From: an uncultured archaeon
GTDB taxonomy: Archaea > Iainarchaeota > Iainarchaeia > Iainarchaeales > DATDZZ01
Reading direction: 5' to 3'
NCBI GenBank assembly: GCA_964373795.1
Contig: CAYJVY010000004.1
Coordinates: 1 to 32,000, forward strand
DNA: 32,000 nucleotides
Positions 7,773 to 31,636 of this stretch are shown here, piece after piece (the stretch's first letter is position 1; every line of letters begins with the position of its first letter). Below the pieces are notes generated by a model. It ran no database searches. It saw only the letters and a list, made by a program, of their open reading frames with translations, and had not been told where the DNA came from. A program made the translations under genes and the position numbers.

Positions 7773-10700
7773 TGAATTACTTTTTTTCCAACTTTTTTTA
7801 ATGCAGTAGACAAGTTAAGGTTAACGAATTTTTTTAACTGCTTCAATAAACGTTGTTTAGTGGAAGATTTTACAAAAGCGTTTTCCAAAACTTCATTCAA
7901 TGTTGTTACTGGAATAATTTTAATTTTTTTACTCATTTCAGGAGTTAAAACAATGTCTTCAAAATTTGATTTAGGAATAATTACTTCTTTAAAGCCTGCA
8001 ACAATTGCCGCGCTTACTTTAGCTGTAACTCCTCCTACAGGTAAAACTTCTCCTCTAACTGACAAGCTTCCAGTCATTGCCAAGCCTTGTTTAATTGGAA
8101 TTCTTTCCAAAGCAGAGATTACAGCTGTTGCAACTGAAACACTTGCAGAATCTCCTTCAACTCCTTCATAGGTTTGCAAAAACTGTATATGCAAGTCATG
8201 CTTTGAAATATCTTTTCCAGAAATTTTTTTAATTAAAGCTGAAACATTTTGAACAGCTTCTTTAGCTATTTCTCCAAGCTTTCCAGTAGCAATTAATTTT
8301 CCTTCAGCAGTACTAGAAGCAGGCGCTATTTCTGCTTCAATAGGCAATACTAATCCAGCATCCCCTGCTCCTGAAACAGCTAAACCATTAACTCTTCCAA
8401 CTGCTTGTCCTTCCCTTAAATAAACATCGTAATCTTTTTTTTGCTCAATTATTTTTGAAACCATTTGCTGTTCAAGAGTTCGAGCAGACATTTTTGCTTC
8501 AAACACGTCTTGCTCTAAAACAAGTGCATGCCCTTTTTCTTTAGCAATATCTCCTGCAGCTCTAATCAAGCCTCCTAAGTCTCTTAACTTTAAAGTTAAC
8601 TTGAATTTTCTTTGAGCTCTTTTTCTTGCCTCAAAAATAATTGCTTCAACTGCTTCTCTAGCAAAATGAGGAATTTTTCCATCCTTTGAAACCTCTTGAG
8701 CAACAAATTGCACTACTTTATTTCTATTCTCTTTATTATCAGGCATATCTAAATTCATGTAAATTTCATATCCATATCCCCTAATTCTTGAACGCAAAGC
8801 AGGATGAACATGTTTTAAGTCTTCATAGTTTCCAGCTGCAACTAAAACAAAGTCACATGGAACTGGATCAGTTCTAGTCATTGCTCCAGAAGACATTTCG
8901 CTTTGCCCAGTAATTGAATACTTTTTTTCTTGCATTGCAGTAAGCAATTCTTGTTGAGCTTTTTGAGGCAAAGTAGCAATTTCATCAATAAATAAAACTC
9001 CTCCATTAACTCTGTGAATTAATCCAGGCTCTACTCTTAAATGAGGCGGAGTTCCTAAACCTCCTGAATTTGCTGCTAAAATGTTATTAGCAATTAAGTT
9101 TCCTGATTCAGTTGTTATGTTGTAAATAATTTCATCAACCATTAGTTCATTATCTGAAAAACTAAATTCTTTTTTTTCAAGCATTTGCATTAAAGAAGAT
9201 GAAACCCTTAAAGTTGAGTTAATGGAGAAATTAGTTTTCCCTTTTTCAAGCAAGTTATTATAGTTTATTTTTTTCCACTCACTCATTTCTTTTAACGCAT
9301 TATTTAGTCTTTCAATTTTTTTATTTGAATAACTTAAAGGAATAAATTTTATAAATCGTGCAAGATTTTCTAGTTCTTTAGAAATGCATAACTTCCAAAT
9401 AAATCTTGAAGGCCTAAACTCATTTTCATAAATGTTGTTTGTTTTGATGCCATAAGAATTTAAATATCTTTTAACTTGAGACAAAAACTGGATTCTATTT
9501 TCTTTTAATTCTTTTGATCCAGCTAAGGCAACATCAAAAGTATTAAAATATTTGTGTTTTTGTGAAAACTTTGGAGAACATAATTCGTTTCCAAGAAATG
9601 CTCCAAAAAATTCTTGCAAAGATTTTTCATTCAAATAAATCCATGAAGGAATAATTAATTCCTTGTTTTTTCTGCCAAGCGGGGCTCCTAAAGCCAAAAA
9701 AAATCTAATTAATGTTCGATTAGTGCAAATTACATTTGCAGCTGTTTCATTAATACCGCTCTTCATTTCCCTTAAATTACTTTTAATTTCTTCACCAAAT
9801 AATTCAATTAAATCTTGTTTGTAATCTGAAAGTGATTCCCTTTCAGCTGAAGACAAAAAAATTCCATTCAAATTAGAAAAAACTCCTCCATCTCCAAAAG
9901 TCGTGCCAAGAATTCTAGCAACTAAATAAACTTTTGAGTGAGAAGTTGTTAAAGGCAATAAATTTTTCTTATTTAATAACTCAATTACTTTAACTGGATC
10001 GGGCTTTGAATTGGTTAAATGCCACCACCTAACCCTTCCCTTAGGAATCTCCAATTTTTTAGCCAATTTTTTATATCCAAAAAAAGGATTCTCCTTTTTG
10101 AGTTTTAAATACTCATAATAAGAGTGAGTTGACTCCTGGTCTTTTTTAGAAAAAGTTTGAATTATATCTTCTTCATCCAAAATTATTTCATCATGTAAAA
10201 AAAGTTTTGAATCAGGAAATATTTTTTCTGCTTCAACCCATTCAGTATTGGAAAAAATCTTATGTTCAGGAGTTAAAATTAATCTGTTACTATTTTTTCG
10301 AATAGAGATCATTTTTCCTGTATAAGGACGTCTATTAACAATGAAAAGTTTAACTGGTTGAATTACTCCCTCTTTAAATCCAAGAATTTTAATATCTTCT
10401 GTATCTGGAAGAATTAAACCTTCATATCCTTTTTCATTTATTTCAACTAAATTAGGGTATTTGAAAATTAAATTATCCACTAATTTTTTGATCAACATAG
10501 GTTGAACTTTATTTTTTTCATTAACCAAATAAACTGCTGTATCAGGAAAAAAAGTCTGAAGCGGATCATGCCTTACATCACCAAGTAATGATCCAGCTCT
10601 TGAACCAGTGCCATCAGCAAAAGGAGCTATTTTTTTTCCTGCATTATCAATTAAAAGTTTTGGTGTTTGCCTTGTTTCTCTTGGCTTTATTTGCGAACCT

Positions 10701-11176
10701 AAAGCTACTCCAATAATTAAAAATCCTCCTAATAGTAAAGTAGCTGCATAAATTACGTCTGAAATCCATTTCAAGCTCCACATAACGTAATTCAAAATAA
10801 ACCATGCAAAAGGCAAAAGCAATCCAATTAATCTAGCATTATCTTCAGCTGCCTTTGAATCCAACCTCATTCTGTGAATAATTTTTTTTCCTTCGCCTGC
10901 ACTCACTACTTTAACTCTTGGATTATTTGAATCAGTTGAATTAGGGTAAATTAAAATGTCATTCAATTTATTGAATGGCAGGATTTCAGCCATTGCTTGA
11001 GCTAACATTGATTTTCCAGTTCCAGGCAATCCAACTAATAAAACATTTCTTTTCTGAACAGCTGCTTTTCTAATTAATTCAACTGCAATGTCTTGTCCAA
11101 TGATTTGTTCAATTAATCCTTTTGGAACAGGAATTTCTTGAGTGCTCTTAAAATCTTTTGAAATCTCTACAACCAT
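7769..11176 (-). CDS. lonB: Archaeal membrane-bound Lon protease (LonB), interrupted by an intein
   Basis: - Walker A is GLPGTGKS.
- Two TM helices are inserted in the AAA+ module.
- GDVRHDPLQ and SGGLGTPPHLRVEPG...VLFIDEI are contiguous in other LonB proteins but separated here by 496 aa.
- The C-terminal protease domain has GDSASV.
- The extein total is 639 aa. Confidence 0.9.
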   Translation of the reverse strand: MVVEISKDFKSTQEIPVPKGLIEQIIGQDIAVELIRKAAVQKRNVLLVGLPGTGKSMLAQAMAEILPFNKLNDILIYPNSTDSNNPRVKVVSAGEGKKIIHRMRLDSKAAEDNARLIGLLLPFAWFILNYVMWSLKWISDVIYAATLLLGGFLIIGVALGSQIKPRETRQTPKLLIDNAGKKIAPFADGTGSRAGSLLGDVRHDPLQTFFPDTAVYLVNEKNKVQPMLIKKLVDNLIFKYPNLVEINEKGYEGLILPDTEDIKILGFKEGVIQPVKLFIVNRRPYTGKMISIRKNSNRLILTPEHKIFSNTEWVEAEKIFPDSKLFLHDEIILDEEDIIQTFSKKDQESTHSYYEYLKLKKENPFFGYKKLAKKLEIPKGRVRWWHLTNSKPDPVKVIELLNKKNLLPLTTSHSKVYLVARILGTTFGDGGVFSNLNGIFLSSAERESLSDYKQDLIELFGEEIKSNLREMKSGINETAANVICTNRTLIRFFLALGAPLGRKNKELIIPSWIYLNEKSLQEFFGAFLGNELCSPKFSQKHKYFNTFDVALAGSKELKENRIQFLSQVKRYLNSYGIKTNNIYENEFRPSRFIWKLCISKELENLARFIKFIPLSYSNKKIERLNNALKEMSEWKKINYNNLLEKGKTNFSINSTLRVSSSLMQMLEKKEFSFSDNELMVDEIIYNITTESGNLIANNILAANSGGLGTPPHLRVEPGLIHRVNGGVLFIDEIATLPQKAQQELLTAMQEKKYSITGQSEMSSGAMTRTDPVPCDFVLVAAGNYEDLKHVHPALRSRIRGYGYEIYMNLDMPDNKENRNKVVQFVAQEVSKDGKIPHFAREAVEAIIFEARKRAQRKFKLTLKLRDLGGLIRAAGDIAKEKGHALVLEQDVFEAKMSARTLEQQMVSKIIEQKKDYDVYLREGQAVGRVNGLAVSGAGDAGLVLPIEAEIAPASSTAEGKLIATGKLGEIAKEAVQNVSALIKKISGKDISKHDLHIQFLQTYEGVEGDSASVSVATAVISALERIPIKQGLAMTGSLSVRGEVLPVGGVTAKVSAAIVAGFKEVIIPKSNFEDIVLTPEMSKKIKIIPVTTLNEVLENAFVKSSTKQRLLKQLKKFVNLNLSTALKKVGKKVIH
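9068..10555 (-). mobile_element. Intein with LAGLIDADG-type homing endonuclease inside lonB (residues 208-703)
   Basis: Block A-like TFFPDTAVYL, block B LILTPEHKIF (TxxH), two LAGLIDADG-like motifs (LVARILGTTFGDGGV and FFGAFLGNELCS), and C-terminal GNLIANNILAAN followed by Ser +1. Boundaries were checked at the codon level: ACT at 10553-10555 and AAT at 9068-9070. Confidence 0.8.
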
Positions 11177-11274
11177 GTTATCAGTTCTAAATATAAGTAA
11201 TAATAATAGAATATAAATTTCTTTGCATGCAAAAGTCGTATATCTTTAAATAACTGAAAATTAAAGGAGATTAA

Positions 11275-15665: not shown

Positions 15666-15728
15666 ATAAATGATATTTAAATGTTTTTATAATAGTTATT
15701 AATTAGTGTTTGCGTTTTCGGTGGAGAA

Positions 15729-17264
15729 ATGAATTTACATAAAATAGTTGAAGAATTAAGTGAAATTGAAAAAACTGTTTTACTATTGTTAACTGAAGAA
15801 AAACATAGCTTGCATGAAATTGAAGCAAAAACTGATTTAAATAAAGACTCCATAATGAGGGCAATTGCTTGGCTTAATCAAAAAGAATTAGCTGAAGTAT
15901 TTGAAGAAAAAATTAAAGTAATAGAGTTAACCTTGGAAGGAAAAAAAGCTTTCAATGAAGGATTAATTGAAAAAAAATTCATTCAAAAAATTAAAGACTT
16001 AAATGGCAAAACAGTTTTAAGTAAATTAAAAGAATCAAACGAATTTGGAAACGAATTAAACTTTGTTTTAGGTCATGCAAAAAAAAATGCTTGGGTTTCA
16101 ATTCTAAAAAAAGGCAATGACTTAGAGGTAGAGTTAACTGGTTTAGAAAAAGATTTACTGCAAGGAAATTATAAAGAAGAAAAACTCATTCACAGAATTG
16201 GAAAAGAAAAACCTTTAGAAAAAAAATTAACTGAAGAAGAACTGCAAACATTTAAAGAATTAAATAAAAGAGGATTAGTAATTGAAGAAGAAAAAATTCA
16301 TAGAAAAATAAGAATTTCCAATGAAGGAAAAAAAGCGCGTGAATTATTTCAGTTTGCTAAAAACGAAATAAATACTTTAAGCAGAAAAGAATTAATTTCA
16401 CAGGAATGGAAAAACAAAGGATTTAGAAAATATAATATTCAAGACCCTGTTCCAGAAATTTGGGCAGGAAAAAGACAACCATATATTCAATTTCTTTCAC
16501 AAATCCGACGCAAACTTGTGGAACTTGGATTCAAAGAAATGTTTGCTCCAACAATTGTTTCAGAATTTTATAATTTCGATGTGCTTTTCCAACCACAAAA
16601 TCATCCTGCAAGAACTTGGACTGACACTTATCAATTGAAACAACCTCAATTTGGAAAGCTTCCTGATAGAAAAATTGTACAAGCTGTCAGGGCAGCTCAT
16701 GAAACAGGAGGAGTTTCAGCTTCCTCTGGATGGGGTTATCAATGGAGTGAAGAAATTGCTTCCAAATTAATGCCTTCAGCTCACGCTACTGCACATTCCG
16801 CAAGACAAATTGTTCAAGGAATAAAAATTCCTGGAAAATATTTTGCAATTGCTCGCTGTTACAGGCCTGATGTGATAGATGCAACTCATTTAGTTGAATT
16901 CAATCAAATGGATGGATTCATTGCAGGCGAAGAGTTGAATTTCAGGCACTTGTTAGGAATTTTGAAACAATTCGCTGTAGAGGTTGCTGGTGCGGAAAAA
17001 GTAAGATTTTATCCAGATTATTATCCTTTCACAGAGCCTTCAGTTCAATTGTCAGCAAAACACCCAGAACTTGGATGGATTGAATTCGCTGGAGCAGGAA
17101 TTTTCAGGCCTGAAATGACTGAAAACCAAGGAATTAAATGCCCAGTAATTGCATGGGGAATTGGAATTGACAGATTGGCAATGTTCAAACTCGGCATTCG
17201 CGACATTAGACATTTGTTTTCAGAGGACTTGAATTACTTACGCAACGCGAAGATGGTGGATTAA
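15729..17264 (+). CDS. pheS: Phenylalanine--tRNA ligase alpha subunit
   Basis: N-terminal winged-helix repeats, then a class II core: FQPQNHPAR, RCYRPDVIDATHLVEFNQMDG, GAGIFRPEM and WGIGIDRLAM. GGTGGAG lies upstream of the ATG. Confidence 0.92.
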   Translation: MNLHKIVEELSEIEKTVLLLLTEEKHSLHEIEAKTDLNKDSIMRAIAWLNQKELAEVFEEKIKVIELTLEGKKAFNEGLIEKKFIQKIKDLNGKTVLSKLKESNEFGNELNFVLGHAKKNAWVSILKKGNDLEVELTGLEKDLLQGNYKEEKLIHRIGKEKPLEKKLTEEELQTFKELNKRGLVIEEEKIHRKIRISNEGKKARELFQFAKNEINTLSRKELISQEWKNKGFRKYNIQDPVPEIWAGKRQPYIQFLSQIRRKLVELGFKEMFAPTIVSEFYNFDVLFQPQNHPARTWTDTYQLKQPQFGKLPDRKIVQAVRAAHETGGVSASSGWGYQWSEEIASKLMPSAHATAHSARQIVQGIKIPGKYFAIARCYRPDVIDATHLVEFNQMDGFIAGEELNFRHLLGILKQFAVEVAGAEKVRFYPDYYPFTEPSVQLSAKHPELGWIEFAGAGIFRPEMTENQGIKCPVIAWGIGIDRLAMFKLGIRDIRHLFSEDLNYLRNAKMVD

Positions 17265-17762
17265 ATGCCTGCAAGAAGAGAGCCACCAAAATTGCCAAAA
17301 AGGAGTTTTAAACAAAGAATTGCTGCCATGGAAAGACATCTTATAAAAATTGGGTGGCTTATTCCAGAAAAAGGCACTAGAAGAAATAAAGCACCGTTTA
17401 GAGGTATGACAGGCAAAGATATAAGTGAACACAACTTTGCTGTAAAAATGATGCTAGCTTTTGAAGAGTCACTAGAGCAAGCACATATTGTTATACCAGC
17501 AGACAAGAAAAAAGAAGTTTATAGACTACATATTAGGTCATGGCGACTAATTAAAAAATTAGAGAAAAAATACGGAAATCTTATGAGAGGAGGAATGCAT
17601 TTGTTAACATCTGATTCAGATGTAAAAGTGCTCACAGAGTTGCAACGCAAAATTGTATTAATTTTGGGTAAAGAAAAAACAAAAGAATTATTGGATTGTG
17701 TTGAAACCATGAACACAGAACTAAATAGATATCTAAGAGAAAAATTAATGAAAGGGATATGA
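17265..17762 (+). CDS. Hypothetical basic helical protein A (paralog of B)
   Basis: The ATG immediately follows the pheS TAA, with GGTGGA 4 nt upstream. N-terminus is RREPPKLPKRSFKQRIAAMER. No family recognised. Confidence 0.6.
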   Translation: MPARREPPKLPKRSFKQRIAAMERHLIKIGWLIPEKGTRRNKAPFRGMTGKDISEHNFAVKMMLAFEESLEQAHIVIPADKKKEVYRLHIRSWRLIKKLEKKYGNLMRGGMHLLTSDSDVKVLTELQRKIVLILGKEKTKELLDCVETMNTELNRYLREKLMKGI

Positions 17763-17812
17763 ATCAATAACGAACAAATATGCAGAATATCTGCAGAAAT
17801 GAAGTGAAAATT

Positions 17813-18307
17813 ATGGCAACAGGAAGACAACCTCCAAAATGGCCTAAGAGAAATTTACAGCAAAGAATTGAAGCAATGCAGAGGCTTAAAATAAAAAGTG
17901 ATGCACTAAAACCAGCAGGAGAAACAAAAAGAGACAAACCTCCTTACAAAGGAATGAATGCACAAAAAATTCTTGAACATAGAAGGATCACTAGAAACGC
18001 ATTGCTCGTGGATGAAGCACTAAGAAAAACTAGAACAAGACTTACAGAATATGATAGAAGAAGAATCCATAAAATAATTATTGGGGCATTAAGAGCTTAT
18101 TCAAGACTTCTTGAAAAATATGGTTTGGAATTGTTACAAGAAATTGATACGCAGATGGTGGGAGCCATGTTTTCAGACCCAGATATAAAAAAATGGAAAG
18201 AATTGACCACACAAGGCGAAAAAATACTTGGAAAAGGAAAATTAAGTACAGTTGTTCAAACACTAATAGATACAGAAAAAATAGTACGAAAAGAATTTCT
18301 CAAATAA
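17813..18307 (+). CDS. Hypothetical basic helical protein B (paralog of A)
   Basis: I chose the start at the Met preceded by GAAGTGA. GRQPPKWPKRNLQQRIEAMQR, K.P..GM, I.EH and LEKYG all align with protein A. Confidence 0.6.
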   Translation: MATGRQPPKWPKRNLQQRIEAMQRLKIKSDALKPAGETKRDKPPYKGMNAQKILEHRRITRNALLVDEALRKTRTRLTEYDRRRIHKIIIGALRAYSRLLEKYGLELLQEIDTQMVGAMFSDPDIKKWKELTTQGEKILGKGKLSTVVQTLIDTEKIVRKEFLK

Positions 18308-18360
18308 ATGCAAAAATGGTGGAATAATTTCAGATCTCAAAAAAAATTTAAAGTGAGAAA

Positions 18361-18729
18361 ATGAATTTAAAAAAATTACGAAAAGAAGAATTAGAGGAAA
18401 AAATTGGCGCGGCTATTTCAAGAATTAATTCAGGAAACGCCAATATTGAGAAAACAATTTCTTGGCTGGACAGTTTATTTAATGAATTCTCTAGAAGGCC
18501 TGAAGTAAAATATAGAGAAAAGCTTTCAATGTGCGAAAGGCTTAAAGAACAATTAAGGCAATGGACAGGCAAACATCTTCAACACGGAGAAAAACTTCAT
18601 TATTTAACTGAATCCGTTTATAGAACAGAAACAAGCATTAGAATAAAACAAGTAAATGCAGTTGGACGAAAAATGCATACAAGAACAACGCCAAGAAAAA
18701 AAGATTCAAGAAAATTTAGACTAAGATAA
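18361..18729 (+). CDS. Hypothetical coiled-coil protein C with a strongly basic C-terminal tail
   Basis: AAGTGAGAAA lies upstream of the ATG. 122 aa, ending RKMHTRTTPRKKDSRKFRLR. Ends 9 nt before pheT. No family recognised. Confidence 0.5.
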   Translation: MNLKKLRKEELEEKIGAAISRINSGNANIEKTISWLDSLFNEFSRRPEVKYREKLSMCERLKEQLRQWTGKHLQHGEKLHYLTESVYRTETSIRIKQVNAVGRKMHTRTTPRKKDSRKFRLR

Positions 18730-18738
18730 AGTGAAATT

Positions 18739-20397
18739 ATGCCATCAATTGATTTAAATTTAAAGGATTTAGAAAAACTTGTAGGGAAAAAATTACCTGA
18801 AGACTTGGATGAATTATTCATGTTTGTCAAAGGAGAAATTGATTCTAGGAACGGGGATGAAGTAAAGCTTGATGTGAAGGAAACTAATCGTCCGGATTTA
18901 TGGAGCACTGAAGGAATTGCCCGCGAACTGAAAGCAAAACTTGGCTTGGAAAAAGGCTTGCCAGAATACAAAGTCAAGAAAGGAAAAGTAAAAATAATAA
19001 TTGACAAGAACTTGGAAAAAGTTCGACCATTCATTGTATGCGCAGTAATCCGGAACGTGAAAATTTCTAATGACTTCTTGATTCAAATGATTCAATTGCA
19101 GGAAAAAATTGGAATGAGTTTTGGAAGGAAAAGAAAAGAATGCGGACTAGGTTTGTACGATTTCGCAAAAATGAAATCACCTGTGCACTACAAGGGATTC
19201 AAGGACAAAGAAATAGAATTCACGCCTTTAGAGTGGAAAGTAAAAATGCACCCAAGTGAGATACTCAAAGAGCATGCAAAAGGAAAAGAATTTGGGCACT
19301 TGCTAGAAGGAAAAGAATTTTATCCAATAGTAATTGATTCAGCTGGAACTGTTGCTTCAATGCCACCAATAATTAACTCTGAAGCAACAGGAAAAGTAAC
19401 AGAAAAAACAAAAGACATTTTCCTTGAATGCACAGGATTCAATTGGGAGATTGTAAATATTGGCTTGAAGGTTATGTGCATGGCCTTAGCTGACAGAGGT
19501 TCTGAAATTGAAAGTTGTGAAATACACTTACCAAAAGGCGGAATTTATCCAAAAGAAGCAGTAATTCACACTCCATTCTTTCGAACAAAAAAAACATCTT
19601 TGGAATTGGATTTCATTCACAGGCTCTCAGGAATTAATTGGACAGATAAAGAAATTCTTTCCCTTGCTGAAAGATGCAGATATTCTGCAAAAATCAAAGG
19701 AAAAAAACTAGAATTAGAATATCATGATTTCAGGAATGACATCTTGCACGCAGTTGATGTAGTGGAAGACTTGCTTATAGCTTACGGTTTTAACAACATT
19801 CAGCCTTTAGAAGTCAAAATGTCTACAACAGGACAGGAAAGGCCTGAGGTTTTAAAACAAGACATTGCAAGAGAAATTTGTATAGGACTAGGGTTGCAAG
19901 AAATACTGCAATACACTTTAACTTCCAAAGAAATGCAAGAAACTAAAATGCTTTTAGAAGAACAAGAATTTGTTGAATTAGCAAACCCTGTTTCACAGAA
20001 TTACGCAATTTTCCGCAAAAGCATGATTCCTGAAATGCTTTCATTTATGGCTAAAAACAAAACAGTTCAAATGCCTCAACACTTATTTGAAGTAGGAAAA
20101 GTTTTAGAAATTGATGAAAAACAAGAAAACAAGGTTAGAGAAAGAGTAATGCTTTGCATTGGAATTTCTAAAAACGAAACAAATTTCACTGAAATAAAAA
20201 GCTATTTACAAGCTTATGCAAAACTACGCGGAGAAGAATTCAAACTAATAGAAACAAGTAAACCTTTCATGATTCCAGGCAGACAAGCAAAAATCTTGAC
20301 AGGAAAAAAAGAAGGATTAATTGGAGAAATCCATCCAAAAGTTTTACAAAATTTTGGCCTCGAGAATCCAGTAATTGTTTTTGAATTGGAAATTTAG
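18739..20397 (+). CDS. pheT: Phenylalanine--tRNA ligase beta subunit (archaeal type)
   Basis: 552 aa. The MPSIDLNLKDLEKLVGK N-terminus, the B3/4 and B5-like regions and the C-terminal catalytic-like fold are typical of archaeal PheT. AAGTGA lies upstream. Confidence 0.92.
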   Translation: MPSIDLNLKDLEKLVGKKLPEDLDELFMFVKGEIDSRNGDEVKLDVKETNRPDLWSTEGIARELKAKLGLEKGLPEYKVKKGKVKIIIDKNLEKVRPFIVCAVIRNVKISNDFLIQMIQLQEKIGMSFGRKRKECGLGLYDFAKMKSPVHYKGFKDKEIEFTPLEWKVKMHPSEILKEHAKGKEFGHLLEGKEFYPIVIDSAGTVASMPPIINSEATGKVTEKTKDIFLECTGFNWEIVNIGLKVMCMALADRGSEIESCEIHLPKGGIYPKEAVIHTPFFRTKKTSLELDFIHRLSGINWTDKEILSLAERCRYSAKIKGKKLELEYHDFRNDILHAVDVVEDLLIAYGFNNIQPLEVKMSTTGQERPEVLKQDIAREICIGLGLQEILQYTLTSKEMQETKMLLEEQEFVELANPVSQNYAIFRKSMIPEMLSFMAKNKTVQMPQHLFEVGKVLEIDEKQENKVRERVMLCIGISKNETNFTEIKSYLQAYAKLRGEEFKLIETSKPFMIPGRQAKILTGKKEGLIGEIHPKVLQNFGLENPVIVFELEI

Positions 20398-20547: not shown

Positions 20548-20820
20548 CTATTTGTAAATTCTGTCGTGATGATCAAAATTATAAAACTTTATTTTATCTT
20601 CAGATTTTAAGTACATGAACGTCAAAACAAATGGACCGTTAACATGAACTCTCTTCAGGTGTTGAAGAGGATTTCTCAGATTCTTGTAATGCTCGACATC
20701 TTCACATCCAAGGATTTCATTAATTTTTTTCATAATAGCTTCATAAGTAACCTTGTCTTTCTTTGCAAGCTTGCTTAAAATCTTTTGAAGACCTGGTTCA
20801 ACAGAAAAATTACGACTCAA
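20548..20820 (-). CDS. RelE/YafQ-like type II toxin
   Basis: 90 aa. KLAKKDK...I.KKI.EI...HYKNL...L..LKRVHV...FVLTF...KIKFYNFDHHDRIY fits the RelE/ParE-superfamily pattern. Overlaps the upstream antitoxin ORF by 11 nt. Confidence 0.62.
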   Translation of the reverse strand: MSRNFSVEPGLQKILSKLAKKDKVTYEAIMKKINEILGCEDVEHYKNLRNPLQHLKRVHVNGPFVLTFMYLKSEDKIKFYNFDHHDRIYK

Positions 20821-21052
20821 TAGCTCGCCTCAAATCAGACAACTTCTTGTATTCAATAAATTTTCCACGCTTTTCAATTTTCTGAATTTTTTTCACAAAT
20901 TCAGGCCTAAGTTCGGGTTCCAAAAAATTTTCCTCATATTTTTTAACAATCCAATCAATTACCTGTGACTTATCCTTTAACCCAAACTTGGCTTTAACAA
21001 TATTCAAAACCCTATTAGTATTTTCATCAATATTTATCATAGCCTGTACCAT
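20810..21052 (-). CDS. Cognate antitoxin (small DNA-binding protein, DUF2683-like)
   Basis: 80 aa. INIDENTNRVLNIVKAKFGLKDKSQVIDWIVKKY resembles the archaeal antitoxin family found upstream of RelE-like genes. Operonic overlap with the toxin. Confidence 0.58.
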   Translation of the reverse strand: MVQAMINIDENTNRVLNIVKAKFGLKDKSQVIDWIVKKYEENFLEPELRPEFVKKIQKIEKRGKFIEYKKLSDLRRAIES

Positions 21053-21259: not shown

Positions 21260-21337
21260 ATGAAACTACCACTTATTTCCTCCAAAGAATTGAGAGAAAC
21301 AAATATATCAAGAGAAGAATTAATTGAAAAATTGTAA
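21260..21337 (+). pseudogene. Possible HicA toxin remnant (N-terminal about 11 aa only)
   Basis: MKLPLISSKEL resembles the HicA N-terminus (KLP.(I/V)S.KE). The rest of the 25-codon ORF does not continue the family. It sits where hicA would be, upstream of hicB. Confidence 0.25.
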
Positions 21338-21375
21338 ACATTATAATTAAATATTTAAAACAGGATAAAACTGTT

Positions 21376-21594
21376 ATGAGAAGATTTGAAGTTTTATTAT
21401 ACAAAGATGAAAATGGAGTATTTATTGCTGAATGTATTAATCTACCTTGATGTATCTCAGATGGTAAAACAAAAAAATATGCCTTAGACAACATAAAAGA
21501 AGCAATTGAAGCTTATCTTGAAAGCTTGGAAAAAAATAATGAACAAATACCTCTTATTAGTTCACCAAAACTGGTTAATGTAACAGTTCAATAA
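21376..21594 (+). pseudogene. HicB-like (UPF0150) antitoxin interrupted by an in-frame TGA at 21448-21450
   Basis: The translation MRRFEVLLYKDENGVFIAECINLP*CISDGKTKKYALDNIKEAIEAYLESLEK matches the HicB pattern ...P-G-C-x-S/T-x-G-x-T..EA..N.KEAI. The stop replaces the invariant Gly. Not in the ORF track because it is split. Confidence 0.7.
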
Positions 21595-21661
21595 AATTTC
21601 TCTAAAACAAAAGCCAGCGAAAAAATTATTAAATCCAAATTCCTTTAAATAATTGATTGAA

Positions 21662-22075
21662 ATGGTTTTTCCAAGCATTGAAGTACTTGTAATAAATTTA
21701 CTATTAGCTGTATTACTTTGAGGAATAATCGGATTTGAAAGAGAGAAAAGCGGTGTGCCAGCCGGGTTAAGAACACATATATTAATTTGCTTGGGTTCAA
21801 CTCTTTTCACTTTGATTTCTGTTAGTTTTTCTGAAGGAGATCCAACAAGAATTGCTTCAGGAATTGTTACAGGAATTGGTTTTCTTGGAGCAGGAGCAAT
21901 CTTTAAATCAAAAAACCACGTAATAGGATTAACTACTGCAGCAGATATTTGGGTTGTATCAGCAATCGGATTAGCAATTGGATTAAATTTTTATTCAGCA
22001 GCAGCAATTACAACATTAATTGCTTTCATAATTTTATTTTTAGGACGCATACTCAAAAAAGAAGTTAACAATTAA
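21662..22075 (+). pseudogene. MgtC/SapB family membrane protein interrupted by an in-frame TGA at 21719-21721
   Basis: MVFPSIEVLVINLLLAVLL*GIIGFEREKSGVPAGLRTHILICLGS... matches the MgtC N-terminus (A.LLGG.IG.ERE....AGLRTH.L). The stop replaces the first conserved Gly. The ORF-track entry 21755..22075 is the in-frame tail. Confidence 0.75.
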
Positions 22076-23537
22076 TTTTTTTCACAATTCCTTTTTCTGC
22101 GTCAACCTCAATTAAATCATTGTCTTTGAAAACCTTGGTTGCATATTTTGTTCCAACCACGCAAGGAATTTTTAATTCTCGTGAAACAATTGCTGCATGG
22201 CAAAGCAAGCCTCCATCGTTTGTAACAATTGCAGAACAGTTCTCCATTGCAGGAACAAATGAAGGCTGAGTTCCAGGAGCAATCAATACATCTCCTTTTT
22301 CCACTTTTGAAATATCTTTTTCTGTCAATACAATTTTTGCCTTTCCTCTGATTTTTCCTGAAAAAGCACAAACTCCTTGAACTCTGTCTAAATTAGAGTA
22401 ATCCATAATCAAGTGTTTATTTTTTTCATAAAACTCCTGCAACTCTCTCCCTTCAATTATTGATGTTTTTCCTTTCTCCAGCAAAAAATAGCAGTCTTTT
22501 ACTCTGTCATTCAATTTCTCAACCAAGCCCTTTGGAACAGAGTTTTTTTCCAGAATTCCAAACAATTCTTGAAGACGAAGCTCAATCACTTGATTATATG
22601 AAAGCCCATATTCTTTGCAGAATAACAGCAAATAAGGGTGCAACTTGTAAGAGGAAAAATGATACCATGAATCTTCAGTAAAAGAAACATAAGCCCATTT
22701 TCTTGCAACTTTTATCTTCAAAAGAGTTTTTTTATCAAACCCATACTTGGCTAGTAATTTTTTTCTTTTTTCCCAAATTCTTTCCTGTTCTAAAATTTTT
22801 TGCAATTCTTTTTCCACGCCTTTTTCAAGAACTTTTTCAATTCGAGGTTTTACGTCTTGCTCTGTATAAGCTCCTCCATAATAAGTGCAAAAACCCATGA
22901 ATGCAAATTTTTCTAAATAATTTTTAATCATTTTCTGGATTTGAGGAGAACTAAATGAAAGCTTTTTGCGCTTCATGTTCAAAGCAATTAAAGCAATTGC
23001 TTTTGCCTCATTTTTTATGTCAGTTGGCTCGTGCAAGGAAAAAACAGTTTCCAAAAACGAATTCAATTCTTTTACATTAGGAATTTTCTGCACAAAAACA
23101 GAATTTAATTCCTCCAAATAAAACTTGTCTAAAATCATGTAATCATAAGTCATTGAACCAATGTCCTTGTATAATTCGAAATACTTTTTGAATTTTTTTA
23201 AAAACAATTTCCTGTCAAACTTTTTTGGTTTTGGCAACAATTTAACCAAAGTTTTTGTATGCTTTTGAATCATTTTTTCCAAACGCTCTGCATAAAACAA
23301 AAGCCTTTCATCAGATTCTTTAAAGAATTCAACAATTGCGTTATATTCTTTTCTTGAAATTCCTCTTTCACTCATGAACTGTCTATAATTTGTCACAGGA
23401 ATATTTCTGCCATGATTTTTTGCAAAAAATCCTTCCCTGAAACACTCGGCTAAAGAGTCAACTAACAAAATCGGAAGCTTTCGCTTTCCAGAAAGCAAAA
23501 TCCATTTTTCATCCCAAGACAAATTCATTTCAATCAC
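22065..23537 (-). CDS. PEP-utilizer swivel (phosphohistidine) domain protein with an unrecognised ~380-aa helical N-terminal region (copy 1)
   Basis: C-terminal G.AKIV...GDVLIAPGTQPSFVPAM...AIVTNDGGLLCHAAIVSRELKIPCVVGT is the PEP-utilizers mobile-domain signature, including the catalytic His. I see no ATP-grasp (PPDK_N) or PEP-binding TIM-barrel motifs. Paralog of 28615..30078. Confidence 0.75.
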   Translation of the reverse strand: MIEMNLSWDEKWILLSGKRKLPILLVDSLAECFREGFFAKNHGRNIPVTNYRQFMSERGISRKEYNAIVEFFKESDERLLFYAERLEKMIQKHTKTLVKLLPKPKKFDRKLFLKKFKKYFELYKDIGSMTYDYMILDKFYLEELNSVFVQKIPNVKELNSFLETVFSLHEPTDIKNEAKAIALIALNMKRKKLSFSSPQIQKMIKNYLEKFAFMGFCTYYGGAYTEQDVKPRIEKVLEKGVEKELQKILEQERIWEKRKKLLAKYGFDKKTLLKIKVARKWAYVSFTEDSWYHFSSYKLHPYLLLFCKEYGLSYNQVIELRLQELFGILEKNSVPKGLVEKLNDRVKDCYFLLEKGKTSIIEGRELQEFYEKNKHLIMDYSNLDRVQGVCAFSGKIRGKAKIVLTEKDISKVEKGDVLIAPGTQPSFVPAMENCSAIVTNDGGLLCHAAIVSRELKIPCVVGTKYATKVFKDNDLIEVDAEKGIVKKINC

Positions 23538-25334: not shown

Positions 25335-25994
25335 TTAAGGTAACAAGTTTTCTAATACAAAAGGAATTATTTTTTGCTCAGCTTTACGCAGGTTTTCTGT
25401 AAAAGTTGAAGCACTTAAACCTTTTCTTTTTGCTAATTCTTTAATGTTGGCTTTTTTTGGAAACTCGTAATACCCTTGTTCAAACGCGTATCGAATTAGC
25501 TCTTTCTGTTTCTCAGGCAAAGAAGGAACTGCATGTGGAATGAAGAAATCCTTTAAAGGTTCTTGAATAATTGACTCTACTTCAAAATGAACAAATTTCT
25601 CCATTTTTTTCAGCATTTTTGTAAGGCTTTCTTTTTTCCATGCACCGAAAGTAACTGTTTGAAAGCCTTGAGGAAAAACTGTTAAGGGTTTGACAAACAT
25701 TATTTCAGGGCTAATAAATAACTGTAAATGACTTTTAGCTGAACTCTTATGAGTGTAAACATAAAAGTCTCCATAGCTTTCAAAATTAGTAATGCTTGGA
25801 TTTTTTTTCACTGCAGCAAAATAGGCTTTTTTGTTTTCTTCAGAACCAATAACGTAATGCACAAAATCAAAGAAAATAAATTTGCCTTTCTTGAAGTGAT
25901 TAATTGGAAAACTTGTAAAAACGATGTTGAATTTTTTTGCATACTCTAAAGCATAAGAATTTTCATGCCAGTATTTGAGTTTTAAAATCCACAT
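25335..25994 (-). CDS. HTH_10 (bacterio-opsin-activator-type) transcription regulator (copy 1)
   Basis: The C-terminal LPEKQKELIRYAFEQGYYEFPKKANIKELAKRKGLSASTFTENLRKAEQKIIPFVL matches the HTH_10 pattern. I trimmed the start from 26372 to the Met at 25994, where MWILKLKYWHE aligns with the paralog start MWVLKAKIFHE. Confidence 0.7.
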   Translation of the reverse strand: MWILKLKYWHENSYALEYAKKFNIVFTSFPINHFKKGKFIFFDFVHYVIGSEENKKAYFAAVKKNPSITNFESYGDFYVYTHKSSAKSHLQLFISPEIMFVKPLTVFPQGFQTVTFGAWKKESLTKMLKKMEKFVHFEVESIIQEPLKDFFIPHAVPSLPEKQKELIRYAFEQGYYEFPKKANIKELAKRKGLSASTFTENLRKAEQKIIPFVLENLLP

Positions 25995-26050
25995 GAAATC
26001 AATAAAGAAAAAGAAATATTTAAAGCTAGCCTTCCATTCATTTACTTGAA

Positions 26051-26076
26051 AACATTTAAATATTTGTTTAAATGTT
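26051..26076. promoter_or_regulatory. 10-bp perfect inverted repeat in the divergent HTH_10 / zinc-ribbon promoter region
   Basis: AACATTTAAA-tatttg-TTTAAATGTT lies about 30 nt upstream of the ATG at 26107 and about 57 nt upstream of the HTH_10 start. Confidence 0.3.
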
Positions 26077-26106
26077 AATATATTGTTTTTATTCTCGGGG
26101 AGAAAA

Positions 26107-26406
26107 ATGAATTTAAAATACTGTCCTAATTGTGGAAAAATAGGGGACTTTGTTTCAGTTAAAGGAATACAAAGATGCGAGTCATGCAAAGTAGTTGGAA
26201 AACCATTAGAAGGAACAATTGATGAAATTAATGCTTTTGCAAAAAAAATAAAAGCAGGAAAACCAATTTCAAGAAATAATTCAGCAATTGATTCAATTTC
26301 AAGCCAAGCAATTACTTCAAAAACAAGTACTTCAAATCCTTCTTCAAATAATGAATGGAAAGAAAAATTCAAGTCATTAAAAGGAAAAATAATTGGTGCG
26401 GACTAG
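26107..26406 (+). CDS. Small zinc-ribbon protein with a Ser/Thr/Asn-rich tail
   Basis: MNLKYCPNCGK...(12)...CESC forms a four-Cys ribbon, and GGGGAG lies upstream of the ATG. It occupies the region that the ORF track assigns to an implausible N-terminal extension of the opposite-strand gene. Confidence 0.5.
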   Translation: MNLKYCPNCGKIGDFVSVKGIQRCESCKVVGKPLEGTIDEINAFAKKIKAGKPISRNNSAIDSISSQAITSKTSTSNPSSNNEWKEKFKSLKGKIIGAD

Positions 26407-27848
26407 AAAAGCTTTGTTTGACTTGGTTCTTTAGATGAATCTTCAAGTTTTTCTTTTTCATTTTCTAATTCAATTCTTTTTTCTTCAAGTTCTTTGAATT
26501 CATCTAATTGTTCAAAGGATTCAAAGGAATGAAGTTTAACTGGTTTAATGAATTTTTTCTTTAACTCTTGAGCTTCAAACAAAATTTTTTCAATTGATTT
26601 TGAATCAGGTTTTGCATTCAATAAAAAACTTAATTCTTTTTCATCAAAATCAAATTGAGTAGTTAATTCAACTGCATTTTTTTTGTTTTGCATTAAAGTT
26701 TTAATGAATTCTAAATCGTTTTTAATTACTTCTTTTGAAGAAGAATGAATTTTTTCTCCAATCTTTAAGGCAATTGCTTTCTTAGTGTTTCTTAAAGCAG
26801 TTGAAGAAGAAAGTTTTTTCAGAAAAGAAGGAAATTGAAGTTGAAGCCATCCATGGTATTCGTTTTCTTTGGCTAAAGCAACTCCTGAAGACATTAATTC
26901 AGATGAATACCTCAAAAAACCCCAATGCTGTCTACGCATTATTCTTCCATCAAATACATCTGCTCTGCTTAAAACCTCAAAAGCTTTTCTTGAATCCTCT
27001 CCCTTTAAATAAATTCTTGGAATATTTTCTTCAACCCATTTTTTTAATAAATCATTGTCAATGTCAATAAAGGCTTTAGATTTTCTAATTTCTTGCAAGT
27101 CTTGTTTTTTAAAGATTTTTTCAACTACCTGAAAAACATCTGTTTCTCTTTCTCTGAAAAAATTTAATTCCAAGTCTTGTAAAACAATTTTATTGTTTAC
27201 AATTGAAAGGTTTTGCAAGTCAAGTAATGCAGCTCTTAAATCTCCATTAGAGTCTTCTGCAAGTTTTTTTAATACTTCTTGATCAAAATCAATTCCTTGT
27301 TTTTCGCAAATCTCTTTCAAACGTTTTGCAATGCTTGGAAAAGAAATTTTGGAGAACTTTAATTCCTCGCAGGAAAATTTAATTGAATCAAGTTTTCTGT
27401 CTGGAAAAAAAATTTTGTTTGCAGTTAAAATAATTGGTTGCTGAGAATCCTTCAATATTTGAGTAATTGCTTGCAAGCCTCCTCTATCTTCACGTTTTTG
27501 AATTCCGTCAACTTCATCTAATAAAATTAATCTTTTCCCAGAAAAAAAAGAAGCATTTAATGAAGCGCCTCCAACAACTTTATCAATAATGTCTTTATTG
27601 CGGAAATCAGATGCATTTAATTCAAATAACTGCCAATTAAATTCTTTTGCCACAAGAAAAGCTAAAGCTGTTTTACCAATTCCAGGAGAGCCATGCAGCA
27701 ATAAAGGCTTTCCTTTAATTCCTTCACTCCAATTTTGAGCCCATTTTTTAACAAACCCAACAATTTTTGAATTTCCAACAAATTCTTTAAAGCTTTGAGG
27801 AGCAAATTTTTCAGTAAAAAGATCAGTCATTAAAAAATTAACTGACAA
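26403..27848 (-). CDS. rfcL: Replication factor C large subunit
   Basis: FTEKFAPQSFKEFVGN, Walker A HGSPGIGKT, Walker B LILLDEVDG, sensor TANK-like region, and an acidic/Lys-rich C-terminal tail typical of archaeal RfcL. The start may instead be the Met at 27830. Confidence 0.85.
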   Translation of the reverse strand: MSVNFLMTDLFTEKFAPQSFKEFVGNSKIVGFVKKWAQNWSEGIKGKPLLLHGSPGIGKTALAFLVAKEFNWQLFELNASDFRNKDIIDKVVGGASLNASFFSGKRLILLDEVDGIQKREDRGGLQAITQILKDSQQPIILTANKIFFPDRKLDSIKFSCEELKFSKISFPSIAKRLKEICEKQGIDFDQEVLKKLAEDSNGDLRAALLDLQNLSIVNNKIVLQDLELNFFRERETDVFQVVEKIFKKQDLQEIRKSKAFIDIDNDLLKKWVEENIPRIYLKGEDSRKAFEVLSRADVFDGRIMRRQHWGFLRYSSELMSSGVALAKENEYHGWLQLQFPSFLKKLSSSTALRNTKKAIALKIGEKIHSSSKEVIKNDLEFIKTLMQNKKNAVELTTQFDFDEKELSFLLNAKPDSKSIEKILFEAQELKKKFIKPVKLHSFESFEQLDEFKELEEKRIELENEKEKLEDSSKEPSQTKLF

Positions 27849-27906
27849 AGAAAATAAGAATTTTCCGCAAAGAAAAGATTAAATATTTCAAATAAACTAG
27901 TCTATC

Positions 27907-28581
27907 ATGTGGGTTTTAAAAGCAAAAATTTTTCATGAAGACTCTTTTGGAATAAAATACTGCAAAAAATACAAACTTACAATGCATGGATATCCTTTAT
28001 CAATTACTCCGCAAGGCAAGGAAGTAATTGTTTCAGTATGGCATTTCATTCAAGGCGAGAAAAAAAATATTAAAAAATATTATGCTGAATTAAAAAACGA
28101 AAAAAAATTATTTGATATTGAAATAAATGGCAACATATTGATTTACTCGTTTTCGGTTTCCAAAAACAACTCACATTGGAGAGCATATGCTAATCCAGCT
28201 GTCGTATTCTTAAAACCTGCAATCATAAATTCAAAAGGAGATGAATTCATAGAAATAGGGGCATGGAAAAAAGAAGTTTTAACAAAATTTATAGAAAGCG
28301 CTTCAAAGAAAATGGAAATAAATGTTTCAAGCCTGAAAAAGGAAAAAGCTCCAGATATATTTATTCCTTTTTCAATGCCAAAACTATCAAGCAAGCAAAG
28401 GATTTGCCTGGATTTGGCATACGAAAATGGTTATTATTTATATCCAAGAAAAATAACTTTGGAAGAACTTGCCAAAAAAGCAAAAATTTCTTATACCACT
28501 TTCCAAGAACATCTAAGAAAAGCAGAAACAAAAATAATTCCTTTTTTCCTGGAACAAACCAAAGCCGACAAACATCGGTGA
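27907..28581 (+). CDS. HTH_10 (Bat-type) transcription regulator (copy 2)
   Basis: The C-terminal LSSKQRICLDLAYENGYYLYPRKITLEELAKKAKISYTTFQEHLRKAETKIIPFFL matches the HTH_10 pattern. It is followed 33 nt later by the co-oriented swivel-domain gene. TGA stop. Confidence 0.75.
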   Translation: MWVLKAKIFHEDSFGIKYCKKYKLTMHGYPLSITPQGKEVIVSVWHFIQGEKKNIKKYYAELKNEKKLFDIEINGNILIYSFSVSKNNSHWRAYANPAVVFLKPAIINSKGDEFIEIGAWKKEVLTKFIESASKKMEINVSSLKKEKAPDIFIPFSMPKLSSKQRICLDLAYENGYYLYPRKITLEELAKKAKISYTTFQEHLRKAETKIIPFFLEQTKADKHR

Positions 28582-28614: not shown

Positions 28615-30078
28615 ATGACAAAAAATAACTGGATTGTTTTAGCATCAGGAAAAGGCCATATTCCATTTTTTGCATATAGTGCATTCATGCATGCCATTGG
28701 AAAACCAATAAAAGAGTTTCCTGGAATAAAAAACATTTCAAAATATAGGAGAGTTCTAAACATTTCTTTTGTTGAAGAAAAAGATTTTCAAGCTCTTTGG
28801 AAATCTCTTGAAAAAGCAGAAAAAGAAAAACCAGGACTTCTGTTAAAAATCGGCAAGGTGTGGGAAAAAAAGTTAGTGGATTTGAAAAAATTTGTTGATA
28901 ATAATTCTGGAAAAAAATTCAAGGAAATGAACAACAAACAACTTTTGGCGTTTTTTAAAGAATTTTTTTCTGTCTGTGAAAAAGCACTGGAATTCGAATT
29001 GTTTTACTATGGAGCTAATGCATTTCTGCCTGAAAAATTATTCAAAGAATTGAATGAAATAATTGAAAACAAAAGTAAGATGAACGATGCCTTACTGGAG
29101 CTGACAGAAATTGATAAAGAGATTTCAGCAACAAAGGAAAGGAAAAAACTAATTGAATTGACTAGGTTTGTAAAAAAACACGGAAAAAATTTCGAAAACC
29201 CTGAAGTGAAAAAAAGAATTGAAAAACACTTGAAAGAGTTTGCATTTCTTGGATATTATTGGTGTGGCAGAAAACCATACAATTCAGAGAATATTAAGGA
29301 AAGAATTACAGAATACTTGGAAAAGGATTTAGAAAAAGAAATTCAAATCTGCGGAAAATGGAAAAAGGTTAAAACTAAAGTCAAAAGAATTTCGAAAAAA
29401 TATTCTTTGCCAAAAAGTATTCTTTTGAAAGCAGAAGCTGTAAGACATTATTCATATGTTTCTACTTTGGCGAATGAAATTTTTGGAAGCTATATGAGAT
29501 TTGGAATGCAAAAATTATTTGAAGAAATTGCAAAACGACTGTATATTTCTGTAGACCAAATTTTGGAGGCAAACAAGGAAGAAATAGTTGATGCTCTAGA
29601 GAAAGGAAAAATTTCAAAAGAATTGCAAAAAGAATTACAGGAACGGACTAAAGATTATTATTTTGAGTTCTATGACAAGAAAATTTTATTTTTTGACAGA
29701 AAAGAAATTGAAAAAGTGAATAAAGAAATGCAGCAAGAGAGCACTGAATTAAAAAAATTAAAACAAGTGCAAGGCTTAAGTGCAAAAAAAGGAATTGTAA
29801 AAGGAAAAGCAAGAGTAATTCTTTCACCACAAGAATTACATTCTGTGAAAAGAGATGAAATACTTGTTTCAATAAACACTACTCCTGTATTTGTCCCTGC
29901 AATGGAAAAAGTTAAAGCAATAGTAACAGATGAAGGAGGATTATTATCTCATGCAGCAATTGTTTCACGAGAACTAGGAAAGCCATGCATTGTTGGAACA
30001 AAGATTGCAACAAAGGTTTTCACTAACGGAGAATTAATTGAAGTGAATGCCACAAAAGGAATAGTTAAAAGGCTTTGA
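28615..30078 (+). CDS. PEP-utilizer swivel (phosphohistidine) domain protein with an unrecognised helical N-terminal region (copy 2)
   Basis: C-terminal GKARVILSP...DEILVSINTTPVFVPAM...AIVTDEGGLLSHAAIVSRELGKPCIVGT. The internal HLKEFAFLGYYW segment aligns with YLEKFAFMGFCT of copy 1. TGA stop falls at the same relative C-terminus as the paralog. Confidence 0.75.
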   Translation: MTKNNWIVLASGKGHIPFFAYSAFMHAIGKPIKEFPGIKNISKYRRVLNISFVEEKDFQALWKSLEKAEKEKPGLLLKIGKVWEKKLVDLKKFVDNNSGKKFKEMNNKQLLAFFKEFFSVCEKALEFELFYYGANAFLPEKLFKELNEIIENKSKMNDALLELTEIDKEISATKERKKLIELTRFVKKHGKNFENPEVKKRIEKHLKEFAFLGYYWCGRKPYNSENIKERITEYLEKDLEKEIQICGKWKKVKTKVKRISKKYSLPKSILLKAEAVRHYSYVSTLANEIFGSYMRFGMQKLFEEIAKRLYISVDQILEANKEEIVDALEKGKISKELQKELQERTKDYYFEFYDKKILFFDRKEIEKVNKEMQQESTELKKLKQVQGLSAKKGIVKGKARVILSPQELHSVKRDEILVSINTTPVFVPAMEKVKAIVTDEGGLLSHAAIVSRELGKPCIVGTKIATKVFTNGELIEVNATKGIVKRL

Positions 30079-30136: not shown

Positions 30137-30555
30137 ATGGTGAAAAGATTTTATTTGGATACAAGTATTTGGAGAGACTATTTTGAAGACAGAGTTGACA
30201 AGTTTAGGCCACTTGGTTTGTTTGCTTTTCAATTTTTGAATGAATGCAGGAATAAAGGCCACAAGGTTTTGTATTCTGATTTGATTTTGTTTGAGTTACG
30301 AAAAGAATATTCAGAAGAAAGAATTAAGTCAATCCTTTCAGAGTTTCACAATATTCTAGAAAGAGTTGAATCTACAGACAAGCAAAAGTAGAGTCAAAGT
30401 TATTAGAAAATAAGTTAGAAGAAGCACATAATCCAGATATATTGCATGCAATTATTTCTAGAGACAACAAGGCAGTAATTATTACAAGAGACAAAGGCTT
30501 CGAAGAATTAAAACAAGTTGTCGAAGTTAAGAAACCAGAAGAAGTCACTTTTTAG
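30137..30555 (+). pseudogene. PIN-domain (VapC-like) toxin gene with a -1 frame break near 30389
   Basis: Frame 1 gives MVKRFYLDTSIW...FELRKEY...STDKQK then stop (30389-30391). The next frame continues from 30391 as ESKLLENKLEEAHNPDILHAIISRDNKAVIITRDKGF..., supplying the third and fourth acidic PIN residues. This is consistent with a 1-nt deletion. Confidence 0.65.
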
Positions 30556-30835
30556 ATTTTTCTTCCAATTCCCTAAAAAACTCTTCACTATATTTTCGCC
30601 TGTTTTCCAGCCATTCTTCATCTGTTTTGGATTTACTCATGCCTTTCAAAGCGCCTCTAGCTGTAAAAAGTGCTTGCCAAGCCTTTTCTTTTCTGCGCTC
30701 GACTTCAAGTTCTTTGAGTTTGCCTCTGATTGCATCTCTAATGAATTCAGTTTTCGTGCTGTATCTAAATTCATGCAAGACTTTTTCAATCTCTTTAGCA
30801 AGAGAAGATTCAAGTTTAATGCTAATGCTTTCCAT
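30545..30835 (-). CDS. Ribbon-helix-helix (CopG-like) protein
   Basis: The N-terminal ISIKLESSLAKEIEKVLHEFRYSTKTEFIRDAIRGKL is an RHH pattern. It is convergent with the broken PIN gene and overlaps it by 11 nt, so the two are not a classical co-oriented pair. Confidence 0.58.
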   Translation of the reverse strand: MESISIKLESSLAKEIEKVLHEFRYSTKTEFIRDAIRGKLKELEVERRKEKAWQALFTARGALKGMSKSKTDEEWLENRRKYSEEFFRELEEKSKK

Positions 30836-30910
30836 ATTACTAAGTAATACATAGTAGTATTTAAAAAATTAATGCAAAAAAAGCTTTAGCTCTAAGTTAA
30901 AAGAAAAAAA

Positions 30911-31192: not shown

Positions 31193-31636
31193 TTGGAATT
31201 AGACAAGCTTGATAGAGAGATTTTGAATATTTTGCTTGAAAACTCTAAACTTGCATATAGGAAAATTGCTGAAAGAGTTGGAGTTGTACCTGCAACTGTA
31301 ATGCATAGAATTAAGAGGCTTGAAAACGAGAAAATAATCAAGAGTTATACTATAGATGTTGATACTGTTAAGACAGGATATGAATTTGAAGTATTAATTG
31401 ACATGGTTATTGATAAAGGCCAAGACTATTTAGTTTCAAGCCGAATTATTGATAATCCTCAAATTGCTAGAATTTATAAAATCACTGGAGCAATGGATGT
31501 AGAATTGGTTGCAAAATTTAAAACAAGAAAAGAATTGGATAAATTTCTTCAAACAATTCAAGAAATGGAGTACGTGAATAGAACTGAAACAAAACTGGTT
31601 TTAAACACAATTAAAAAATCCGAAGTAATAATTTAG
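31193..31636 (+). CDS. Lrp/AsnC family transcription regulator
   Basis: TTG start preceded by GGGGA. LDKLDREILNIL...AYRKIAERVGVVPATVMHRIKRLENEKII is the HTH, followed by a RAM/AsnC-type C-terminal domain. Confidence 0.85.
   Translation: MELDKLDREILNILLENSKLAYRKIAERVGVVPATVMHRIKRLENEKIIKSYTIDVDTVKTGYEFEVLIDMVIDKGQDYLVSSRIIDNPQIARIYKITGAMDVELVAKFKTRKELDKFLQTIQEMEYVNRTETKLVLNTIKKSEVII

Follow-up and report, generated by a model that had tools for sequence, protein, structure and literature searches.

The DNA analysed here, referred to as the window, is a stretch of 32,000 nucleotides. It codes for PCNA, endonuclease dU, a LonB protease that probably contains an intein, tRNase Z, the large subunit of RFC and malic enzyme, together with the alpha and beta subunits of PheRS, which are both of archaeal type. 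The closest relatives of PheRS-beta have identities of 63-65% to it, and the named ones, which come lower in the list, are from Diapherotrites, Iainarchaeum or simply an 'archaeon'. The window is a segment of the chromosome of a standard-code DPANN archaeon that is Diapherotrites/Iainarchaeia-like. Between pheT and a gene of the PEP-utilizers family lies an accessory islet of ~1.7 kb composed of a yafQ/relE-DUF2683 gene pair, hicA-hicB and mgtC (Table 1). The neighbouring genes hicB and mgtC are each interrupted by one in-frame TGA.

Table 1. Genes and sequence features of the window mentioned in the text.
Feature	Position	Strand	Characteristics
PCNA	112-861	-	
LonB protease	7769-11245	-	1158 aa
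pheS	15696-17264		PheRS alpha
Three small ORFs	17265-18729	+	165, 178 and 125 aa
pheT	18730-20397		PheRS beta; islet border
YafQ/RelE-like toxin	20548-20820	-	90 aa, intact, TTG start; TIGR00053 E=8.7e-15
DUF2683 protein	20810-21052	-	80 aa; PF10884 E=5.5e-12
hicA remnant	21260-21337	+	25 codons; both ends of a 72-75 aa HicA toxin
hicB antitoxin gene	21376-21594	+	72 codons; TGA at codon 25; PF15919 E=8.3e-6
In-frame TGA of hicB	21448-21450	+	At the invariant Gly of LPGC
mgtC (MgtC/SapB family)	21662-22075	+	137 codons; TGA at codon 20; PF02308 132.9 bits
In-frame TGA of mgtC	21719-21721	+	At the first Gly of G-x-x-x-G-x-E-R-E
PEP-utilizers paralog	22065-23537	-	About 487-490 aa; islet border
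HTH_10 regulator	25335-26402	-	Between the two PEP-utilizers paralogs
RFC large subunit	26403-27878	-	
HTH_10 regulator	27907-28581	+	Directly upstream of the second PEP-utilizers paralog
PEP-utilizers paralog	28615-30078	+	About 487-490 aa
Region of overlapping ORFs	30518-30847	+/-	Ribbon-helix-helix-like gene and its antisense ORFs
Ribbon-helix-helix-like protein	30545-30835	-	96 aa; ends on TGA
AsnC-type regulator	31193-31636		

The LonB protease is archaeal and features Lon_C and LonB AAA-LID domains. A large insertion, from about amino acid 100 to 735, interrupts the AAA+ domain, and in it sub-threshold, weak signals of intein splicing and of a LAGLIDADG homing endonuclease are found. The three small ORFs that separate pheS from pheT gave no significant match in Pfam/NCBIfam; PheRS subunit genes are usually adjacent. 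The sole recognisable domain of the two PEP-utilizers paralogs is the carboxyl-terminal PEP-utilizers mobile (phosphohistidine) domain, and no family was found for their amino-terminal part of ~380 aa. One of the two HTH_10 regulator genes immediately precedes the second paralog and the other is placed between the paralogs (Table 1).

Just past the end of the window, in a locus (L092) that extends ~2.4 kb beyond its 3' end, a Cdc6/Orc1 gene is found next to the AsnC-type regulator gene. With PCNA and the large subunit of RFC also encoded in the window, there may be a replication origin nearby. The ribbon-helix-helix-like protein has a weak amino-terminal similarity to NikR/ParD. Antisense ORFs of about the same length cover its whole gene, which belongs to a stretch of ~1.1 kb that is otherwise gene-poor.

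Within the islet, both genes of the YafQ/RelE-DUF2683 pair are intact, and the toxin gene overlaps the DUF2683 gene by 11 nt, an arrangement which supports the DUF2683 protein as putative antitoxin partner of the toxin. This pair adjoins a decayed hicAB module. An initial annotation, made from the DNA letters alone, had reported a HicA stub upstream of hicB, and the stub is indeed present. Comparison by tblastn and hand alignment with the HicA proteins of two homologous loci (L003 and L007) identified it as a remnant made of HicA residues ~1-12 and ~55-72, relative to homologs of 72-75 aa. Its amino terminus MKLPLISSKEL aligns with MVKLPVISSKDL of HicA and its carboxyl terminus LRETNISREELIEKL aligns with LRQANLKSEDLLKLL, while ~45 internal codons that include the conserved GSH region are missing in frame. 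In homologous Iainarchaeia/DPANN loci an intact hicA gene (72-75 aa, PF07927) is positioned directly upstream of hicB, whereas the remnant alone is found beside hicB in the window. Deletion of the hicA core leaves hicB as an orphan antitoxin gene and, combined with the stop in hicB, predicts that the HicAB module is inactive.

The hicB frame extends from the ATG at 21376 to the TAA at 21594 and is open apart from one TGA, reading MRRFEVLLYKDENGVFIAECINLP-TGA-CISDGKTKK.... The stop column corresponds to the G of LPGC in 22/22 aligned homologs. The Pfam family HicB_lk_antitox (PF15919) scores 26.4 bits for a cutoff of 27 when the stop is entered as X. All 21 database homologs of hicB carry PF15919, with identities of up to 71-72%, and the named ones among these 21 are DPANN archaeal HicB proteins. 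At the site of the stop, the homolog from L003, which is of Iainarchaeum type, has the codons TTA CCT GGA TGT and the window has CTA CCT TGA TGT, the flanking codons CCT and TGT being the same in both.

The mgtC frame, which starts at the ATG at 21662 and finishes at the TAA at 22075, is also open apart from one TGA and reads MVFPSIEVLVINLLLAVLL-TGA-GIIGFEREKSGVPAGLRTH.... Its match to PF02308 covers profile positions 1-119 of 121, with a score well above the cutoff of 31.4 bits. The column of the stop has G in 118/119 top homologs and S in the other one. More distant genomic relatives among the matches listed have a Gly codon at this position in 68/78 cases and otherwise Ser, Cys or Ala (10), and a stop codon is found there in none of these 78. 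All 27 other invariant columns of a 26-sequence alignment (A1) are kept. An uninterrupted frame for the amino-terminal GxxxGxERE helix is not present, the TGA at codon 20 replacing the first Gly of the motif. The only downstream start is the GTG at 21755, whose product would lack the first helix and the GxxxGxERE motif. The two TGAs are spaced by 271 bp. Their positions and spacing, the frames that are otherwise intact from start to stop and the placement of the stops on conserved Gly columns had all been read correctly in the initial annotation.

The two stops are an exception in the window. Its 24 confident genes (8557 codons, of which 447 code for Gly) are free of in-frame TGA, a set that takes in ORFs of 1158, 555 and 522 aa, and the in-frame TGAs found are limited to the two in hicB and mgtC. 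TGA is the terminator of 6/28 genes, at sensible carboxyl termini, and reading past each of these TGAs leads to junk and further stops; the six were known from the earlier reading of the sequence. One PEP-utilizers paralog ends with ...GIVKRL-TGA and its sister with ...GIVKKINC-TAA. The absence of TGA from the 24 genes and its use as terminator exclude a genome-wide reassignment for this stretch, and the initial annotation was right in calling genome-wide recoding unlikely. In the literature, Absconditabacteria and Gracilibacteria are the only groups with the UGA=Gly reassignment (PMC4032931, PMC8629427). In Archaea the sole genome-wide stop reassignment reported is that of UAG to pyrrolysine, and none was reported for UGA as of 2026 (bioRxiv 10.64898/2026.05.24.727570).

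Recoding signals were also sought. ARAGORN detected no tRNA in the 32-kb window, whose contig measures 112 kb or more, and the window has neither an Rfam family at gathering threshold nor a release-factor gene. No stable structure was found downstream of the TGAs, the 80 nt from each of them folding like shuffled sequences (z=+0.83 and +0.84). Incorporation of selenocysteine was rejected, both sites being Gly positions that have no SECIS-like Rfam match. Readthrough of UGA by near-cognate tRNAs yields Trp, Cys or Arg, not Gly, and the archaeal aRF1 is one factor for all three stop codons.

The same sequence was recovered in other assemblies. One Logan contig of 6357 bp from run ERR3478686 and another of 1302 bp from run ERR4904391 match the window with 100% identity, both TGAs included, which shows that the TGAs are not base-calling errors. 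The shorter contig (ERR4904391_249251, L002) corresponds to window positions 21402-22703. In the independent assembly L001 the islet is joined to core archaeal genes, from pheT to the malic-enzyme gene.

Gene callers have mistranslated this locus, creating database artefacts. A public entry for this mgtC (P0001) is a 106-aa tail call from the GTG at 21755. Another one (P0142) is a 137-aa MgtC with Trp at the stop, and the Logan DNA behind it carries TGA; the Trp thus stems from gene calling under code 4 on a short contig and does not represent another allele. A partial hicB from the same contig (L002) was likewise read through its TGA. Code 4 (TGA=Trp) was discarded as candidate, both columns being Gly in homologs and the Trp of P0142 being a choice of the gene caller on a 1.3 kb contig. 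This code-4 entry, an artefact from a short and AT-rich contig, could mislead the homology-based inference of genetic codes.

The best matches in protein searches are 62-66% identical for MgtC and up to 71-72% identical for HicB, and the named best homologs come from Diapherotrites, Iainarchaeum, Aenigmatarchaeota and Pacearchaeota. The initial annotation described both families as 'mainly bacterial', which is misleading here since their nearest relatives are archaeal. Divergence from the best homologs (62-71% identity) matches that of the flanking PheRS-beta (63-65%). Gracilibacteria/Absconditabacteria (GTDB class JAEDAM01) are found neither among the named hicB and mgtC matches nor among 80 GTDB loci taken from the matches listed. 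A comparison of composition had been proposed in the initial annotation and gives no sign of foreign origin: the 816-bp region is typical of the window, at the 68th percentile of equal-sized windows for trinucleotide distance and at the 32nd percentile for GC. The DPANN homologs, the PheRS-beta-like divergence, the hicA-hicB synteny in those archaea and the typical composition indicate that hicB and mgtC are native genes and not imports from a code-25 organism.

No relative closer than 62-72% identity was found in protein searches or among the matches listed from DNA-level scans of GTDB genomes and JGI metagenomes. The closest MgtC loci among the matches listed (L094-L097) have 44-49% GC, use GGT or GGC and have no shared synteny. 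A search for other strains via the DUF2683 gene returned only the Logan contig that was already found. As no relative exceeds 72% identity, the ancestral codon and the timing of the changes are not directly readable.

The codon usage of the window provides a short route to both stops. GGA represents 298/447 (67%) of its Gly codons, and mgtC has 12 GGA codons if the one presumed to have become TGA is included. With GGA dominant, and present at the HicB site in L003, one G>T transversion per gene suffices. In-frame stops of pseudogenes are known to have a non-random origin from particular neighbouring codons (Codetta paper, PMC8629427). Chance estimates were computed under three mutation models. 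One random nonsense hit per gene gives GGA>TGA in both genes with a probability of about 0.7-1.9%. If both stops are taken as TGA, the probability that both derive from Gly is about 7-21%. The double-Gly coincidence is mildly unusual but not compelling, since it was singled out only once it had been seen. What is left is a modest coincidence, two stops of the same type within 271 bp in genes that show no other damage.

The best explanation, to which a probability of about 0.8 is given, is that two recent GGA>TGA nonsense mutations occurred in a decaying accessory islet where hicA was already deleted. Such a pair of mutations was among the possibilities listed in the initial annotation, and the internal deletion in hicA adds weight to it. 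An in-frame internal deletion removed the catalytic core of hicA, leaving hicB as an orphan antitoxin gene under no selection. Then hicB and the adjacent mgtC would each have gained a single G-to-T transversion that converted a GGA glycine codon, the probable ancestral state, to TGA. Translation would end at codon 25 of hicB and at codon 20 of mgtC, without a full-length product of either gene, and both would now be non-functional. The rest of both genes is intact, which suggests that the inactivations are recent. The same lack of further damage counts against decay, as a functional recoded gene would also be undamaged.

Functional readthrough or suppression would account for this preservation. 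The TGAs would be decoded by a tRNA-Gly(UCA) encoded elsewhere or by a near-cognate tRNA, with HicB and MgtC produced at a low or regulated level. All remaining invariant residues are kept in both genes, and the stops fall on Gly columns in both, for which the a priori chance is about 1-2%. Distant MgtC relatives have Cys, Ser or Ala at this column, so a near-cognate Cys might be tolerated there. The initial annotation had also considered local suppression, but nothing in the window is in its support: tRNA, known recoding RNA elements and downstream structures are all absent from it, and TGA is the normal terminator of 6/28 genes. Moreover, deletion of the hicA partner removes the reason to keep HicB, the Gly at the HicB site is invariant, and near-cognate decoding does not supply Gly. 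Readthrough is accordingly quite unlikely. It is very improbable that the DPANN host has a low-efficiency or context-dependent decoding of UGA as glycine, for example by a tRNA-Gly(UCA) whose gene lies elsewhere in the genome, and that the two TGAs are the earliest traces of an incipient code-25-like reassignment. If suppression were true, it would be the first case of UGA sense decoding in Archaea.

An artefact of the consensus or of the population, resulting from a GGA/TGA polymorphism or from library damage of the 8-oxoG type, with intact genes in many cells, is a quite unlikely source of the TGAs. The two G>T changes share a strand, which is the signature of oxidative damage, and the two Logan runs and the MAG may not be independent samples. 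However, three assemblies (the two run accessions and the contig of the window) agree base for base over 1.3-6.4 kb, and damage, which is of low frequency, would not be expected to prevail in the consensus of two different runs. A further proposal of the initial annotation was the recent import of a fragment from Gracilibacteria or Absconditabacteria, which use code 25 (TGA=Gly), that would be untranslatable in the archaeal host. In its favour, TGA on Gly columns is what characterises code 25, both TA modules and MgtC are mobile and widespread, and relatives of MgtC are found in many bacterial phyla. Against this, the named best homologs (62-71%) are DPANN archaeal and include no Gracilibacteria or Absconditabacteria, which is essentially the outcome that the initial annotation had named as refuting the transfer. 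They are as divergent as the relatives of the housekeeping gene next door, the hicA-hicB order is that of Iainarchaeia loci, the composition does not set the region apart from the window as a whole, and L001 joins the islet without a break to core archaeal genes. Such an import is extremely improbable.

The two genes share with the code 25 of Absconditabacteria/SR1 and Gracilibacteria/BD1-5 (PMC4032931, PMC8629427) the presence of in-frame TGA on conserved Gly columns. They differ in that only 2 codons in 2 adjacent genes are concerned, TGA being otherwise a terminator that is absent from reading frames. The host is an archaeon, with PCNA, RFC, LonB and PheRS of archaeal type, the 32-kb window has no tRNA-Gly(UCA) and the nearest homologs are from standard-code archaea. 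The case calls for caution, as GGA>TGA mutation in AT-rich genomes dominated by GGA can mimic locally the code-25 signal.

The module resembles type II HicAB TA systems (PF07927/PF15919) in the order hicA then hicB, in the HicB sequence, which is 60-72% identical to DPANN HicB, and in the hicA remnant, which keeps the amino- and carboxyl-terminal residues of the family. In contrast to these systems, its toxin has no core and its antitoxin gene has a premature stop. The mgtC gene has a full-domain match to MgtC/SapB (PF02308) and the single-domain build of ~140 aa that is typical of archaeal members, but it differs from them by the premature stop at codon 20.

The closest likeness in kind is to ordinary nonsense pseudogenes in degenerating TA or accessory loci. 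As in those, a premature stop caused by a single nucleotide interrupts a recognisable gene, the partner toxin is already deleted, and the genes belong to a small, non-essential islet between housekeeping genes. The differences from such pseudogenes are that here both stops would be GGA>TGA changes at highly conserved Gly codons 271 bp apart, and that neither gene has other damage, which would make the nonsense events very recent. On this reading, the two-TGA case is routine gene decay in a reduced-genome archaeon.
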